This document shows positions 1-57,501 of a stretch of 64,000 bases of DNA, in pieces. The notes beneath the pieces were generated by a model. The model searched no databases. It was not told the DNA's origin and was given only the letters and a program-made list of their open reading frames with translations. Origin of the DNA: Escherichia coli (GTDB taxonomy: Bacteria; Pseudomonadota; Gammaproteobacteria; Enterobacterales; Enterobacteriaceae); the NCBI RefSeq assembly GCF_050920415.1, contig NZ_CP169309.1; one strand, written 5' to 3'. The position numbers and the translations under genes were made by a program. Each line of letters opens with the position of its first letter. The stretch's first letter is position 1.

Positions 1-729
1 TTTTCGCTGGTGGCTGTTAACCTCGATCAAAAGCAACCGGGCTTCCCGGAACACGTTCTGCCCGAGTATCTTGAAAAGCTGGGCATTGAGTACAAGATTG
101 TGGAAGAGAACACTTACGGTATCGTGAAAGAGAAGATTCCGGAGGGCAAAACCACTTGCTCACTGTGTTCTCGTCTTCGTCGCGGAATTCTTTACCGTAC
201 CGCAACGGAACTGGGAGCGACGAAGATCGCGCTGGGTCACCATCGTGACGATATCCTGCAAACGTTGTTCTTAAATATGTTCTACGGCGGCAAGATGAAA
301 GGTATGCCTCCGAAACTGATGAGCGATGATGGCAAACATATTGTGATTCGTCCGCTGGCCTACTGCCGCGAGAAAGATATTCAGCGATTTGCCGATGCAA
401 AAGCGTTCCCGATTATTCCGTGCAACCTGTGCGGTTCACAGCCTAACCTGCAACGTCAGGTGATTGCTGACATGTTGCGTGACTGGGATAAACGTTATCC
501 GGGGCGTATCGAGACGATGTTCAGCGCGATGCAGAATGTGGTGCCGTCGCATCTGTGCGATACCAACCTGTTCGATTTCAAAGGCATTACCCACGGTTCT
601 GAAGTGGTTAACGGGGGTGATCTGGCGTTTGATCGCGAAGAGATCCCTCTACAACCGGCGGGTTGGCAGCCTGAAGAAGATGAAAATCAGTTGGATGAGT
701 TACGACTGAATGTGGTTGAAGTGAAATAA
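1..729 (+). CDS. ttcA: tRNA 2-thiocytidine biosynthesis protein TtcA, 3' portion (5' end outside window)
   Basis: ORF runs in from window start; translation matches TtcA C-terminal region (two CxxC pairs); stop at 727-729. Confidence 0.88.
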
Positions 730-857
730 CCCGGATAGCGCCCGATGCGCAAGCTTATCGGGCTACTCTTATGGAGGCCGGATAAGACGCGGCCAGCGTC
801 GCATCCGGCAATCCCGAAGAAGATGTTTACTCTTGCACCCTGCGATTCAACATTTCA

Positions 858-2231
858 TTATTTTAATAACCGCACCCGGCACGTTTTTCCTTTAATCTTC
901 CCGCCCTGTAACTGTTTCCATGCTTTATGAGCAACAGCCTGACGCACCGCGACATAGACATGCGCCGGATGCACGGCGATTTTGCCAATATCTGCGCCAT
1001 CAAGCCCGATATCTCCTGTCAGCGCACCTAATACATCACCCGGGCGCATTTTGGCTTTTTTCCCGCCATCGATACACAACGTTGCCATTTCTGCTTCCAG
1101 CGGCACAATGGAACTATTAACTGGCGGCGTTTGCCAGTTAAGTTTTATCTGCAACATGTCAGAAATGATATTGGCCCGCTGTGCTTCTTCCGGGGCACAG
1201 AAACTGATCGCCAGACCGCTATTTCCTGCACGCGCTGTACGACCAATGCGATGTACATGAACTTCAGGGTCCCACGCCAGTTCAAAGTTCACTACCAGCT
1301 CAAGCGATTTAATATCAAGACCACGCGCAGCAACATCCGTCGCGACCAGCACACGAGCGCTACCGTTAGCAAAACGTACCAGGGTCTGATCGCGGTCACG
1401 TTGCTCCAGATCGCCATGTAACGACAATGCACTTTGCCCTATGTCATTCAGCGCGTCGCAGACAGCCTGACAATCTTTTTTGGTATTGCAAAACACCACG
1501 CAAGAGGATGGCTGATGCAAACTTAATAACCGTTGCAACAGCGGAATTTTGCCTTTGCTGGATGTCTCATAAAATTGTTGTTCAATGGGAGGCAGAGCAT
1601 CTGTTGAGTCAATTTCAATCGCCAATGGATCGCGTTGAACTCGTCCGCTGATTGCGGTGATGGCTTCCGGCCAGGTTGCCGAAAACAGAAGCGTCTGTCG
1701 AGATGCTGGCGCAAAACGGATAACATCATCAATGGCATCGCTAAATCCCATATCCAGCATGCGATCGGCTTCATCCATCACCAGCATATTCAACGCATCC
1801 AGTGATACCGTGCCTTTTTGCAGATGGTCCAGCAAACGCCCCGGGGTTGCCACGATAATATGCGGCGCATGTTGCAACGAATCACGCTGCATACCGAACG
1901 GTTGACCACCGCACAAAGTCAAAATTTTGGTATTTGGCAGAAAACGCGCCAGCCGACGCAATTCACCTGCCACCTGATCCGCCAGTTCACGCGTAGGGCA
2001 CAGCACTAAAGCCTGGGTCTGAAATAGCGACGCATCAATTTTCTGTAGCAGCCCGAGGCCAAAAGCCGCCGTTTTGCCGCTGCCGGTTTTCGCCTGCACG
2101 CGAACATCTTTTCCGGCAAGGATCGCCGGAAGCGCGGCGGCCTGCACCGGCGTCATAGTTAAATAACCCAACTCATTAAGGTTCGTGAGTTGGGCGGGAG
2201 GCAAAACATTCAGGGTAGAAAAAGCGGTCAC
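858..2231 (-). CDS. dbpA: ATP-dependent RNA helicase DbpA (DEAD-box)
   Basis: 457 aa; GSGKT Walker A, DEAD box, SAT, HRIGRTAR motifs; apparent GTG start. Confidence 0.92.
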   Translation of the reverse strand: MTAFSTLNVLPPAQLTNLNELGYLTMTPVQAAALPAILAGKDVRVQAKTGSGKTAAFGLGLLQKIDASLFQTQALVLCPTRELADQVAGELRRLARFLPNTKILTLCGGQPFGMQRDSLQHAPHIIVATPGRLLDHLQKGTVSLDALNMLVMDEADRMLDMGFSDAIDDVIRFAPASRQTLLFSATWPEAITAISGRVQRDPLAIEIDSTDALPPIEQQFYETSSKGKIPLLQRLLSLHQPSSCVVFCNTKKDCQAVCDALNDIGQSALSLHGDLEQRDRDQTLVRFANGSARVLVATDVAARGLDIKSLELVVNFELAWDPEVHVHRIGRTARAGNSGLAISFCAPEEAQRANIISDMLQIKLNWQTPPVNSSIVPLEAEMATLCIDGGKKAKMRPGDVLGALTGDIGLDGADIGKIAVHPAHVYVAVRQAVAHKAWKQLQGGKIKGKTCRVRLLK

Positions 2232-2261
2232 AATCTGTTCTCGTGGTCATCGACGCAAAAA

Positions 2262-2435
2262 TTAGCAAGCGCGTATCCTCGCAGATCTACGCTCACGATG
2301 CGACAATTTAATCGGTTCTTCATCGGGTGGTGGGTCAGGCATGGGTTGCGGGCGAGGGATTGGATCGGGCACTGGAACAGGATCGCCAGGAATCGGTTCA
2401 GGGACAGGAATTTGCAAATAAATGAGTGTCGTCAT
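2262..2435 (-). CDS. hypothetical proline-rich small protein (57 aa)
   Basis: ATG at 2435 preceded by GGAGGG RBS; Pro/Asp-rich repeat-like peptide; too short for ORF track. Confidence 0.3.
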   Translation of the reverse strand: MTTLIYLQIPVPEPIPGDPVPVPDPIPRPQPMPDPPPDEEPIKLSHRERRSARIRAC

Positions 2436-2709
2436 ATTTCCCTCCGGTCATTGGGTGGACTCTTAAAGGGTAGACGCTGATATATAACAGGCAAAAAAAA
2501 GCCGACTCATCAAAGTCGGCGTCGTACGAATCAATTGTGCTATGCAGTAATTCAAAAAAGGAAGTAAGACAATATGGAGCGCAACGCCCATCGCTTGACG
2601 TTGCATTCACCTGCAAGAGAGATATTGCCCTGAATGGGTAGAGAGTTTATTGACTTCGCTCAAACTTTGCGGCGTTTTTGTATACAGATAGTAGGGAAAA
2701 TTGCTGTTG

Positions 2710-3714
<1,005 letters not shown>

Positions 3715-3947
3715 TTATTTTGTAGTCTAGCCTTCTGGCCCTGTTACGCAACATCTCATCACCCCATTACCCTGAAATGATTAATAAAATTCTGTCTAAA
3801 TTGAATACAAAAAGCAAAATGCTTTTCCATATACAAACCGTGTGAAGTGTTAAATAGCGTCTATCATTATCAGAATTATCTGATCATATGACGTGGCTTT
3901 TTTGCGATCGGATAGCAACAAAAATTGATAAAAATAACGGGATCTCA

Positions 3948-5180
3948 ATGATTACGCACAACTTCAATACCCTGGACTTACTCACCAGTCCTGTCTGGAT
4001 CGTTTCGCCCTTTGAGGAACAGTTAATTTATGCCAACAGCGCGGCGCGACTGTTGATGCAAGACCTCACGTTTAGTCAGCTACGAACCGGTCCCTATTCC
4101 GTCTCCTCACAAAAAGAACTACCGAAATACCTCTCCGATCTGCAAAACCAACACGATATTATCGAAATCCTCACTGTTCAACGTAAAGAAGAGGAAACAG
4201 CATTAAGCTGTCGGCTTGTTTTGCGAGAGCTGACAGAAGCAGAACCGGTGATTATTTTCGAAGGTATCGAAGCGCCGGCAACGCTGGGTTTAAAAGCCAG
4301 TCGTTCGGCAAATTATCAGCGCAAAAAACAAGGTTTTTATGCGCGCTTTTTTCTGACTAACTCTGCACCAATGTTGTTGATTGACCCCTCACGAGATGGC
4401 CAAATCGTCGATGCTAACCTCGCCGCGCTCAATTTCTATGGTTATAACCATGAAACGATGTGCCAGAAACATACCTGGGAAATTAATATGCTCGGGCGTC
4501 GCGTCATGCCTATCATGCATGAAATCTCGCATTTACCCGGTGGTCATAAGCCTTTGAATTTTGTTCATAAACTGGCGGATGGTTCGACTCGTCATGTGCA
4601 GACCTATGCTGGGCCGATTGAAATTTATGGCGACAAGCTCATGTTATGTATTGTGCATGATATTACTGAGCAAAAACGGCTGGAGGAGCAGCTGGAACAT
4701 GCTGCCCACCATGACGCGATGACCGGATTACTGAATCGGCGACAGTTTTATCACATTACCGAGCCAGGCCAAATGCAGCACCTCGCCATCGCTCAGGATT
4801 ACAGCTTATTGCTCATCGACACCGATCGTTTTAAACACATTAACGATCTCTATGGGCATTCTAAAGGTGATGAGGTGTTATGCGCCCTCGCCCGCACTCT
4901 CGAAAGTTGCGCTCGCAAAGGCGATTTGGTGTTTCGTTGGGGAGGCGAAGAGTTTGTCTTATTGCTACCAAGAACCCCACTGGATACCGCGCTTTCGCTG
5001 GCTGAAACTATCCGCGTAAGCGTGACAAAAGTGAGTATTTCGGGCTTACCACGCTTTACCGTCAGCATTGGTGTGGCGCATCACGAAGGAAATGAAAGCA
5101 TCGATGAACTGTTTAAACGCGTTGATGATGCTTTGTATCGGGCGAAAAATGATGGACGCAACCGCGTGCTGGCGGCATAA
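3948..5180 (+). CDS. dgcM: diguanylate cyclase DgcM (PAS-GGDEF)
   Basis: GGDEF domain with RWGGEEF motif; start chosen at MITHNF (410 aa) rather than upstream ATG of the 430-aa track ORF. Confidence 0.82.
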   Translation: MITHNFNTLDLLTSPVWIVSPFEEQLIYANSAARLLMQDLTFSQLRTGPYSVSSQKELPKYLSDLQNQHDIIEILTVQRKEEETALSCRLVLRELTEAEPVIIFEGIEAPATLGLKASRSANYQRKKQGFYARFFLTNSAPMLLIDPSRDGQIVDANLAALNFYGYNHETMCQKHTWEINMLGRRVMPIMHEISHLPGGHKPLNFVHKLADGSTRHVQTYAGPIEIYGDKLMLCIVHDITEQKRLEEQLEHAAHHDAMTGLLNRRQFYHITEPGQMQHLAIAQDYSLLLIDTDRFKHINDLYGHSKGDEVLCALARTLESCARKGDLVFRWGGEEFVLLLPRTPLDTALSLAETIRVSVTKVSISGLPRFTVSIGVAHHEGNESIDELFKRVDDALYRAKNDGRNRVLAA

Positions 5181-19782: not shown

Positions 19783-19941
19783 CTCAACAACTCCATAATG
19801 TTAACTTATGTGTCAATTCTACCATTTTGCGATCTGTGTTACATTTCTGTCTTATACAAAATGTATTTGTTGATTTACATCAATGTTGTGAAAATGCGGT
19901 TTGTGGATACTACAACCAACGAAACAACGGAGGGTAAGACA

Positions 19942-26478: not shown

Positions 26479-26616
26479 TTTATCACCTTGTTGTTTTGTG
26501 ATCTGCATCACACCGTGAATGCCAAAATGGATTGATAGCGTGATTTACAATATGTATATTTTACTCAAACGAACGGTAGTAAACAAAATGGCACAGTTTG
26601 GAACAGGATAGGACAC

Positions 26617-28119: not shown

Positions 28120-28308
28120 AAAACCCCCATAAGTTACATTTTGTATATATCTTTACGCGCTTCTACGCGAAAAATAAGATCTTCATCACAATGATTATAG
28201 CTAGTTTACAAAATGGCTTCACATAGCACACAACAAGATGTATATAAAAAGCAAGAAGAAAAGCAGTACCAACGAAGGAGGCCCAAAAATGAAACGCTAT
28301 GAGTAGTA

Positions 28309-31385: not shown

Positions 31386-31536
31386 GATTTAACCTCATGC
31401 AAAATGTGATCTATGCATCTATTTTATACAAAATGTCTTTATTTTAACGATACCGTTTTGTATAGATGATGTAGGGAAAGATAGAAGAGATGCAGGAAGG
31501 ACGGATGTCCCGGAGGAAGTGAAAGAGGATAAGGAA

Positions 31537-52356: not shown

Positions 52357-52958
52357 GCCGCCTTTCTCCTTAAGGCGTCCAATTTTGCCTGATAGATGTT
52401 TATTAGCTCCTTACATTCTGCGATCGTCCATTTGTGCGTATCGTTGTTGTTCTCCAGTGCTACCACCCTGGCGAGGCCAATTTTTCGAATCAGCGCCGGG
52501 CGATACCCTCCGATGTTGCCGTCTAGTGTCTGGTTGCAGTGCCTGCATTGCTTGTGACAATTATCCTCGTTGAAGCGAAGGTGTCCGGCGGCGGCTACCG
52601 TCCTGTAATGGCCTGCATCCCACCCGCATTGCTCACCGTAGTAAGTCCCGCATGATATGCACGGCAATCGCGCGTCACGCTCGCGTATATAAGCGTTAAA
52701 AACGTTTTGCGCCTGTTTAATCCAGTAGCTACGCGGATTTAACTGCTTCCGCTTCCGGTTGCGTTCTTCCCGCTGGCTATCACGGCGTTTCTTCCGTTCC
52801 ATAGCCTTCATAGCCTTCTCACGGTCGCGGCATAGCTGATCAAACTTCAGTTCTTCCAGACATTCATCGCTGCACCACGTTTGATTGTGATATTTAGGCT
52901 CAAAAAAAACGCCGCAGCATTTGCAACGGCGTCTTATGGGTTTTTTAGGGTTCTGCAT
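52353..52958 (-). CDS. NinG/Rap-like recombination protein
   Basis: 201 aa from MQNPKKPIRRR with GGGGTGG RBS; Cys/His-rich; nin-region position. Confidence 0.7.
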   Translation of the reverse strand: MQNPKKPIRRRCKCCGVFFEPKYHNQTWCSDECLEELKFDQLCRDREKAMKAMERKKRRDSQREERNRKRKQLNPRSYWIKQAQNVFNAYIRERDARLPCISCGTYYGEQCGWDAGHYRTVAAAGHLRFNEDNCHKQCRHCNQTLDGNIGGYRPALIRKIGLARVVALENNNDTHKWTIAECKELINIYQAKLDALRRKAA

Positions 52959-52972
52959 AAAAACCACCCCTA

Positions 52973-53149
52973 TTATTTTTGATTCTCTGTTTCGTTCAGC
53001 CTTTCGGCGTGTCCGGCCCTTAGCCGATGATCTAAGCATTCGTTGCACTCGTTACGGCCTCCTTTCTTCGTGCTGCATACATTGCACATTGCACGCATGA
53101 CGCTCTCTCGTTCATAGTCGTCATGCCATTGGTAATCATCAAAAGACAT
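52973..53149 (-). CDS. small zinc-ribbon protein (NinF-like, 58 aa)
   Basis: AGGAG RBS; two CxxC pairs; first gene after promoter-like element. Confidence 0.45.
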   Translation of the reverse strand: MSFDDYQWHDDYERESVMRAMCNVCSTKKGGRNECNECLDHRLRAGHAERLNETENQK

Positions 53150-53270
53150 AATGCTCTCTCCTTTTCAGGTGATTTCTACGCATTTCAGCGCTGCCGGATT
53201 TTTAAAGAGCATTTCGTTTGCTTGAAGTATACAAAATGGATGCACCTGAACAAGGCAAAAAGCGCCATTA

Positions 53271-53286
53271 TGTGACCAAAATCACA
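53271..53286. promoter_or_regulatory. CRP-like binding site TGTGA-N6-TCACA
   Basis: tgtgaccaaaatcaca is a perfect match to CRP half-site consensus; lies upstream of minus-strand promoter-like TTGTTC-16-TATACT. Confidence 0.4.
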
Positions 53287-53308
53287 CAATGACGCCATTT
53301 TGTAAACT

Positions 53309-54067
53309 TTAGTCCGGTAAAACGCGGTTAAGCGTAGTCCGCGTGATGGCCCGGTCGTTAGCCAGGAATACAGCACGGGCGAAGCCGCGCGGCGTTAGTG
53401 ACCGGATCATCTTTGTTCGCTTTGCCCGGCCTCCGGTTTTCGCCCACCCAGGGTTATCACCAGAGTTAAGATCTACAGGTCTAAAAATCGGCTGTTTAAA
53501 TCCGTTGCCGCACCAGATGCAAGTTTTCTTCGTGTACGCGTCGCGCGCCGGGTAAACATCCGGGAAAGCAGGATGCTTGTCATCTTCCGGCAGATAGCCA
53601 CCGTAAGCGCACGGATTGAAGATAAAATCTGGTTTACGCCATAACGTTGACAGTGCTCCTACCGGATTTTCCACCATCCACGGGACGTTATACATGTCAG
53701 CCAGTGTTTCGACCAGTTTCGCGTTATATGCCGCCTTCACCTGGAAGTCAGGATCTTTTTCACGCTTGCTGGAGAACCAACGAGCGCCGGACACGGCGAG
53801 ATCGTCGCATGGTGGGAAGGCAAAAATAATGTCAGGATCTGGATAAACAGACAATTCAGGGGAGAATATTACCAGGAAATGGCTATCAATCCAGACATTG
53901 ACATATTCAATATTGGGATGAATTACTTTTACTCCGTCATAATCCCCGTGATTAGCGCCGTCATAGTTGAAGCAATAGCACTTATATCCAGCTTCAGCCC
54001 AATCTTTAACGGCGTACCCGCTGCCATCGTAAAGCGACCATACCACCCAATTTTTAAGACTGCTCAT
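53309..54067 (-). CDS. putative DNA cytosine-5 methyltransferase-like protein (short)
   Basis: 252 aa; LYDGSGYA (motif I-like), FAFPPCDDLAVSG (PC motif IV-like), MVENPVGAL (ENV motif VI-like). Confidence 0.45.
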   Translation of the reverse strand: MSSLKNWVVWSLYDGSGYAVKDWAEAGYKCYCFNYDGANHGDYDGVKVIHPNIEYVNVWIDSHFLVIFSPELSVYPDPDIIFAFPPCDDLAVSGARWFSSKREKDPDFQVKAAYNAKLVETLADMYNVPWMVENPVGALSTLWRKPDFIFNPCAYGGYLPEDDKHPAFPDVYPARDAYTKKTCIWCGNGFKQPIFRPVDLNSGDNPGWAKTGGRAKRTKMIRSLTPRGFARAVFLANDRAITRTTLNRVLPD

Positions 54068-56782: not shown

Positions 56783-56859
56783 TTTTGCTTCCTCCGCACC
56801 GTAAACCTTTTGATTTCGGATTACAAAACGGATATGCGATTACAATACATAATGTATAT

Positions 56860-57501
56860 TCATGTGATCGGAATCACTCGGTTAATGCAGTACACGTTTT
56901 CCCTGTTCAGGCATCGGCTGTGCGTTTTTCCTTGCATCGTTAAGCGTAGCGATAGCTGCCTGTACTCCCAAAACACTAGCGCGCATATCATCGCCAACAA
57001 AATTACCGTAAAGCACAGGAATAAAAGCCTTAATGTTATCTTCTTCGTGTCCTTCCTCAATAAATTTCTGCAACATCTTAACTTCAAATATTTTTTCATC
57101 ATTCCGCGAATAGAATACAAAGAAGCGCTACCCATTCTGTTTTCATCAATAGGGAAGATAACAGCACTACCAAAAGCCATAGGATCAACATCTTCAGGCA
57201 CTGGAACGCGTCCGAATTCTTCCTCCATGCGTTTTACAAAAGAAAGGCAGAATACATAACGCGCCACCGTTGTTTTTTCTTCCAGGCTTAAAGACACGTA
57301 ATCGCGGATTGACGCATCCATCATAATATCAACAATATGTAGCGCCAGGTTTAAATCACCGTCATACACGCCAGCATCCATATCTTTTAATACTTCGTGA
57401 TAATCCTTAGTTACCACTTCGTGAAAGCTCGCGTCTTCTGTGTAGCGAGTGATTAACATGCCTTCGCTGCCGAGTGAATAAGCTGTTTTGATGTTGTTCA
57501 T
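56860..57501 (-). CDS. hypothetical protein, possibly frameshifted at an A6 tract (or two overlapping ORFs)
   Basis: N-terminal frame and a second frame (56882..57076) can be joined by +1 A at the A6 run 57091-57096. Confidence 0.3.
   Translation of the reverse strand: MNNIKTAYSLGSEGMLITRYTEDASFHEVVTKDYHEVLKDMDAGVYDGDLNLALHIVDIMMDASIRDYVSLSLEEKTTVARYVFCLSFVKRMEEEFGRVPVPEDVDPMAFGSAVIFPIDENRMGSASLYSIRGMMKKYLKLRCCRNLLRKDTKKITLRLLFLCFTVILLAMICALVFWEYRQLSLRLTMQGKTHSRCLNRENVYCINRVIPIT

Follow-up and report, generated by a model that had tools for sequence, protein, structure and literature searches.

A perfect match to the core of the CRP binding consensus lies in a prophage at the apex of a long inverted repeat, which raises the question whether it serves as an operator on the DNA, as the tip of a terminator hairpin on the RNA, or as both. 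The site (site B hereafter) is the 16-mer TGTGACCAAAATCACA in the window, that is, the whole 64-kb stretch of DNA analysed here. As the first-pass annotation of this DNA had stated, sequence inspection and search gave an exact TGTGA-N6-TCACA, with 10 of 10 core positions matched. Only two such exact cores occur in the window, at 53271-53286 (site B) and 26497-26512 (site A); 0.03 are expected in the shuffled window and none of 100 shuffles attained two, though this string statistic overstates the CRP specificity, because the site-B motif is embedded in a longer inverted repeat and, one arm being given, only one half-site must match. Read against the full 22-bp CRP consensus, site B has 14 of 22 matches and its flanks are unlike the consensus. 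We put at about one half the probability that site B is a CRP-type operator, placed in class-I-like fashion ahead of an internal early promoter (P_B), whose bases double as an RNA hairpin.

The window comes from an E. coli chromosome into which a prophage of the mEp021 ("mEpimmI") group is integrated. Its first 4 kb correspond to the E. coli dbpA-zntB-ttcA-dgcM region with identity up to 100%; the host flank at window 1-4000 reads dbpA-zntB-ttcA-ynaL-dgcM, and ttcA is the Rac prophage locus in K-12. Phages of the mEp021 group are Nus-dependent and non-lambdoid (PMC11893012). The site-B region was matched in only 34 of 5426 complete E. coli genomes, and also in seven phages of the group (mEp021, mEp010, mEp013, mEp044, mEp515, mEp554 and MagusPhagus). 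An Rfam scan of 52800-53500 gave no match, and zero matches were returned by a 39-nt pattern scan of species-representative genomes. Site B is located in the 159-bp gap from a cytosine-methyltransferase gene to ninF, where the features are as follows.

53309-54067, minus strand: DNA cytosine methyltransferase-like gene, 252 aa, the upstream gene (RefSeq/GenBank annotations of homologues)
53293-53308, minus strand: second copy of a recurring motif, AGTTTACAAAATGGCG, overlapping the base of the 5' arm of the hairpin
53261-53296, minus strand: inverted repeat of 36 nt with a 16-bp stem and a 4-nt loop, the CRP motif at its apex (terminator scan)
53271-53286: site B, TGTGA-N6-TCACA, 17 bp from the -35-like hexamer
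53257-53261, minus strand: T-run TTTTT, then GCCTTGTT, 3' of the hairpin (sequence and terminator scan)
53248-53253, minus strand: -35-like hexamer TTGTTC of P_B, 3/6 against the consensus
53226-53231, minus strand: -10-like hexamer TATACT of P_B, 5/6 against the consensus, inside the recurring motif ATCCATTTTGTATACT (53226-53241)
53199-53211, minus strand: boxA-like TGCTCTTTAAAAA of a nut site (nutR2 homologue)
53178-53191, minus strand: boxB-like hairpin GCGC-UGAAAU-GCGU of the nut site, by stem pairing
52973-53149, minus strand: ninF-like ORF, 58 aa, the first gene downstream
52902-52931, minus strand: terminator-like hairpin (CGCCG...CGGCG) with T8 inside the 5' end of ninG, strong in the scan

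The ninF-like ORF has no Pfam match and is annotated as 'putative NinF' in mEp021. NinG (Pfam E=7.7e-67), RusA and a Q-type antiterminator (E=1.9e-29) are encoded downstream of it on the minus strand, and the NinF-like/NinG/RusA/Q-like order of the first-pass annotation is thereby borne out, by Pfam for the latter three and by the mEp021 annotation for NinF. In three STEC genomes (among them L037, which is E. coli STEC308, 1501-1780), an HNH endonuclease gene stands in place of the methyltransferase gene and homology restarts about 20 nt before the old methyltransferase stop codon, so that the hairpin, the promoter-like element and the nut site travel with the downstream ninF module.

The promoter-like element TTGTTC-16-TATACT, claimed earlier for the minus strand, is present, with the -35 at 53253-53248 and the -10 at 53231-53226. 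The placement of site B upstream of it was also right, but the distance of about 40 bp was a loose figure, the real gap from the core to the -35 being 17 bp. With its 16-bp spacer, P_B falls below the threshold of a generic promoter scan and is hence unlisted there; a weak -35 is usual in activator-dependent promoters. Measured to the first base of each hexamer, the centre of the site-B core is 25.5 bp away from the -35 and 47.5 bp away from the -10, and it would stand at -59.5 if transcription starts 7 nt past the -10, or as far as -61.5 with later starts. In class I CRP promoters of the lac P1 type CRP is centred at -61.5, and in lac P1 17 bp separate the CRP core from the -35 hexamer. We infer that the geometry at P_B is class-I-like, with a predicted start at about 53219 on the minus strand. 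Among the 38 aligned homologues the -10 TATACT is invariant, and 'CTTGT' of P_B is kept between two hypervariable stretches. When layouts were compared by coordinates, P_B (TTGTTC-16-TATACT, spacer end CCATTTTG) was found to be similar to the PL-like promoter of the prophage (TTGACC-16-TAAACT, spacer end CCATTCTG), and its spacer/-10 sequence CCATTTTGTATACT resembles the CCATTCTGTAAACT of the latter. The 16-mer ATCCATTTTGTATACT is also found beside the PR-like promoter.

Between P_B and ninF there is a nut site, which the first-pass annotation did not mention. As in nut sites of the lambda type, a boxA-like sequence precedes a boxB hairpin whose loop is A-rich; the boxB stem pairs in all homologue sequences, and 3 of them show a compensatory change of one pair from G.U to C-G. 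Its location agrees with the published nutR2 of mEp021, which lies downstream of the cytosine-methyltransferase gene (PMC11893012). The hairpin with T8 inside ninG, about 283 nt downstream of the nutR2 boxA, is kept in 54 of 54 loci and is T7 by ARNold in mEp554; it may be a terminator that nutR2-modified transcripts must pass.

On the RNA side, the hairpin that carries site B starts 13 nt past the methyltransferase stop codon and is followed in the window by the tract TTTTTGCC. For RNA of the transcribed strand the predicted folding energy is -22.7 kcal/mol (z=-7.9), or -25.9 kcal/mol (z=-5) with the flanks included, versus -12.0 for the antisense strand. The four pairs of the stem that deviate from Watson-Crick pairing are all G.U on the transcribed strand. 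A stable stem-loop thus follows the gene directly on the transcribed strand, as is expected of an intrinsic terminator. In the GenBank record of mEp021 (MH706966) a predicted terminator, TERM_4 (t4, score 79), stands exactly at the homologous spot; t3 and t4 of mEp021 are predicted, while t1, t2 and t5 have been demonstrated (PMC11893012). Conservation of the T-tract is poor: the 38 homologues have 3-6 T among its first 8 nt (mEp021 has TATTCACC, L030 has ATTCACC), and just 13 of the 38 pass an approximate terminator score of the d'Aubenton-Carafa type. The ARNold-based annotation of mEp554 lists other terminators and none at the hairpin spot; that of mEp010 lists other terminators in the searched stretch. 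An intrinsic terminator conserved here throughout the family is therefore not well supported, though the copy in the window is among the better ones.

For the conservation of site B, 39 distinct homologues (38 aligned) were gathered by anchors outside the hairpin and by BLAST matches. The core reads CGTGA..TCACA in 26 of the 39, TGTGA..TCACA in 12 and TGTGA..TTACA in one (E21845). GTGA and TCAC are thus retained in 38/39 and the first T is C in 26/39, a pattern that the overlapping hairpin predicts as well. The central N6 is always six nucleotides long, despite 14 different sequences among the 38 aligned. Around this core, both stem arms are nearly invariant, the tail 3' of the stem is variable (again 3-6 T in 8 nt), the first six bases of the P_B spacer are hypervariable, and CTTGT (the -35 core) as well as the stretch from ATCCATTTTGTATACT through the nut site are conserved. 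Conservation by itself is weak evidence, because the intergenic region as a whole is about 92% conserved. In the big stem the 38 distinct but closely similar homologues show zero double compensatory changes and six one-sided changes that preserve pairing, a covariation result that speaks neither for nor against the RNA stem. At stem pair 45-60, 12 sequences have U-A and 26 a C.A mismatch; this T/C difference weakens the hairpin and the CRP core alike and does not discriminate between them. The TTACA of E21845 alters a critical CRP contact and keeps the RNA pairing.

Site B is not isolated in the prophage. With one mismatch allowed, six CRP-type cores occur in the window versus 1.7 expected, and four of the six are upstream of promoter-like elements with a gap of 17-19 bp from the core to the -35. 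Besides site B these are as follows.

56863-56878, minus strand: AGTGA-N6-TCACA (the 56.8-kb palindrome), 17 bp upstream of TTGTAA-16-TAATCC, in the layout of site B
61762-61777, plus strand: TTTGA-N6-TCACA (the PL palindrome), 18 bp upstream of TTGACC-16-TAAACT (61796-61823), which precedes a nutL-like site
26497-26512, plus strand: TGTGA-N6-TCACA (site A), 19 bp upstream of TTGATA-17-TATATT (26532-26560)

RNA structure at these three palindromes is within the background (-4.6, -4.7 and -1.0 kcal/mol; the -4.6 of site A has z=-0.2). Most simply read, all four modules have the short palindrome in common, and the long stem is an addition made at site B. In the sequence comparison site A stands out as the cleanest phylogenetic footprint among the four palindromes: across 38 distinct family members TGTGA and TCAC hardly change, and at least 12 different spacers occur. 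The promoter-like element next to it is a near-copy of the PR-like promoter and heads a reverse-oriented cassette of small genes inserted between tail genes; one gene of the cassette is a 'putative antirepressor' in mEp021. The PL palindrome is kept in 3 of the 3 available homologues. The 56.8-kb palindrome provides weaker evidence, because it extends into the end of a coding region and its core is disrupted in 5 of 18 homologues; the homologues have a C/TGTGA half-site and the -10 TAAACT. At this module (56818-56878, minus strand, between two small early genes) the -10 in the window is a degenerate TAATCC, TAAACT being the form in mEp021 and mEp554, and the module may be decaying in the present prophage.

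No CRP-type palindrome was found at the PR-like promoter, which makes it unlikely that the palindrome is the operator of the phage repressor. We rejected this candidate, as a lysogen must keep the PR-like promoter repressed and that promoter carries no such palindrome; a better candidate operator is the ACAAAATG-type motif. A putative promoter of the repressor gene, TTGAAA-18-TATCAA, is located at 61763-61792 on the minus strand, and its -10 overlaps the left half of the PL palindrome. Judged from this overlap, a protein bound at the PL palindrome could affect the repressor promoter and PL oppositely.

The motif in which the -10 of P_B is embedded recurs in the prophage. Its core ACAAAATGG has 10 exact copies in the window versus 0.6 expected, and the 16-mer AGTATACAAAATGGAT has 11 matches at no more than 3 mismatches versus 0.9 expected. 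Copies are found at the following positions.

53226-53241 and 53293-53308: beside site B
60965-60980, 60987-61002, 61775-61783 and 61810-61818: recurring-motif copies
47775-47808, 31428-31461, 28136-28216, 26522-26591, 19822-19864 and 56823-56831: further recurring-motif copies

Every predicted early promoter has such copies, frequently in inverted pairs; they overlap the -10 at promoters of the PL type and the -35 at those of the PR type. This motif is a candidate operator for a CI-like repressor; operators of the mEp021 group are undescribed in PMC11893012. Near site B, two direct ACA(A/T)AATGGCG copies 30 bp apart feed both arms of the hairpin. Some other features were seen in the same survey. 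The PR-like promoter is covered, from its -35 to roughly its start site, by an inverted repeat TTGACTCG-N22-CGAGTCAA at 60927-60964 (minus strand). At about 47815-47830 (minus strand, intergenic) 13 consecutive C are found just upstream of an inverted ACAAAATGG pair and of a promoter-like element TTGTTT-17-TATAAA.

Three other explanations have to be weighed. The hairpin may be a plain intrinsic (Rho-independent) terminator, t4, of the methyltransferase gene, which is overridden by polymerase modified with Gp17 and Nus factors, the CRP match being incidental and playing no role at the DNA level. The 16-bp stem, the 4-nt loop and the T-run found by the scan, the folding energy of -25.9 kcal/mol with flanks (z=-5) and the far better folding of the sense than of the antisense strand, the start 13 nt past the stop codon, and the TERM_4 annotation (score 79) together with the t4 predicted in PMC11893012 all suit this account; moreover, the lower stem is kept beyond what a CRP footprint would cover, and the TTACA variant of E21845 still pairs. 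The core conservation at site B could even be explained by the hairpin alone. However, the T-tract is unconserved, the C.A mismatch sits in the stem of 26/38 homologues, only 13/38 pass the approximate score, the ARNold-based mEp554 annotation is without a terminator at the spot, and the t4 status in PMC11893012 is that of a prediction. A terminator also leaves unexplained why stemless, near-identical palindromes recur at the same promoter spacing. We consider a terminator without any DNA-level role to be possible, though doubtful. It is very unlikely, on the other hand, that the inverted repeat has no regulatory function and is a chance product or relic of a local duplication of the AATGGCG-containing motif. 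The two direct motif copies contributing to both arms and the roughly 92% conservation across the intergenic region are compatible with such an origin, but the nearly invariant arms contrast with hypervariable sequence in the loop, in the tail and in part of the spacer, the 10 extra stem pairs beyond the core would arise by chance at about 5e-5 by our own estimate, and the palindrome recurs at a fixed spacing.

An unlikely explanation, too, is that the palindromes (yGTGAT-N4-rTCACA) are operators of a phage-encoded DNA-binding protein and not of host CRP, for example of the small helix-turn-helix protein heading the leftward operon or of a small protein of the antirepressor cassette. The palindrome is indeed present at four phage regulatory regions, gp14 of mEp021 is annotated as a helix-turn-helix protein, and by our own reading the PL copy overlaps a possible opposite-strand promoter of the repressor gene, where a Cro-like protein would be expected. 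Nevertheless, the sequence agrees exactly with the CRP consensus, down to the T and A adjoining the half-sites, the PR-like promoter is without a copy, and the sites are placed, with lac-like spacing, about 60 bp ahead of the predicted starts, which suits a class I activator and not a repressor covering the promoter. The reading that we prefer, a CRP-type operator doubling as a hairpin, draws on the perfect and statistically unusual core, the 17-bp gap as in lac P1, the pattern of conserved and hypervariable blocks, the likeness of P_B to PL, the structure-free palindromes at three other promoter-like elements and the footprint at site A; the constant N6 length despite sequence change, the E. 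coli host and the PR-like promoter without the palindrome were also counted for it. Against it stand CGTGA in 26/39 homologues and TTACA in E21845, a centre at -59.5 with a standard start (2 bp closer than in lac), a -35 of just 3/6, the 22-bp flanks off the consensus, the disruption of the 56.8-kb palindrome in 5/18 homologues and the TTTGA of the PL copy. The earlier suggestion of cAMP-CRP input into prophage genes has thus gained from the perfect core, the lac-like 17 bp and the recurring palindromes, and has lost from the prevalence of CGTGA in most homologues and from the one TTACA.

If site B is a CRP operator with a hairpin, the locus would work as follows. cAMP-CRP bound at 53271-53286 would aid RNA polymerase in starting at about 53219 on the minus strand in the class I fashion, and the P_B transcript would carry the nutR2 boxA/boxB inside its first 45 nt. 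Without Gp17 this transcript would halt at the hairpin and T8 in the 5' end of ninG, while with the N-like Gp17 and Nus factors it would pass this terminator into ninG, rusA and Q. The palindrome would have been extended to a 16-bp stem at site B, and in transcripts coming from the methyltransferase gene the same bases would fold into the t4 hairpin followed by the T-run. A wider and still more tentative proposal, which we rate as rather improbable, is that the mEpimmI group wires host cAMP-CRP into its development via sites at PL-type promoters and at the antirepressor cassette, site B doubling as a terminator hairpin; carbon status rather than DNA damage would then help to decide between lysogeny and lytic growth. 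The mEpimmI phages are common in the human gut and are not induced by UV (PMC11893012). If CRP acts, early and antitermination-dependent transcription in this widespread group of gut coliphages, and possibly expression of the antirepressor, would be tied to the carbon status of the host, which would give a testable account of when UV-unresponsive phages choose lytic growth. The third nut site would also be explained, as serving transcripts from an internal promoter. If CRP does not act, what is left is a predicted terminator already annotated in a relative, with a hairpin tip that mimics a protein-binding site.

Two parts of this picture are already known: the annotation of a relative lists the hairpin as a predicted terminator, and CRP sites as such are familiar elements. 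PMC11893012 and the phage records examined make no mention of a promoter or CRP site at the site-B spot; the recurrence of the palindrome-plus-promoter layout is absent from PMC11893012, and its supplements are without nutR2, terminators and promoters.

With regard to known systems, the closest likeness on the DNA is to class I CRP promoters such as lac P1, with which site B and P_B share the perfect TGTGA-N6-TCACA, the 17-bp gap and the weak -35. The two differ in the spacer (16 bp in P_B versus 18) and in the centre of the site, about -59.5 to -61.5 from a predicted start; moreover, the flanks of this candidate site are off the 22-bp consensus, and it belongs to an early operon of a phage and shares its bases with an RNA hairpin. 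Host CRP control of coliphage promoters has a precedent in phage T1, where cAMP-CRP acts directly on the pir, dam and recE promoters and links phage development to carbon status (PMC6737242). CRP inhibits in T1, whereas the geometry at site B suggests activation, in an unrelated phage group.

On the RNA, t4/TERM_4 and nutR2 of mEp021 have the same position and sequence in the gap from the methyltransferase gene to ninF, with a hairpin followed by boxA/boxB. The window differs from mEp021 in its perfect stem (U-A versus C.A), its perfect core and its better T-run (TTTTTGCC versus TATTCACC). The prophage also resembles lambda, whose nin-region terminators tR2-tR4 are overridden by N/nut antitermination, in having terminator-like hairpins between the replication/modification genes and Q in a phage with an N-like protein and nut sites. 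The lambda nin region is not known to have an internal nut site or promoter; in contrast, a third nut site follows immediately upon the hairpin and the promoter-like element in the present prophage. Site B may thus be likened to a lac-type class I CRP promoter on the DNA and to the nin-region terminators of lambda on the RNA, its membership in either class being putative.
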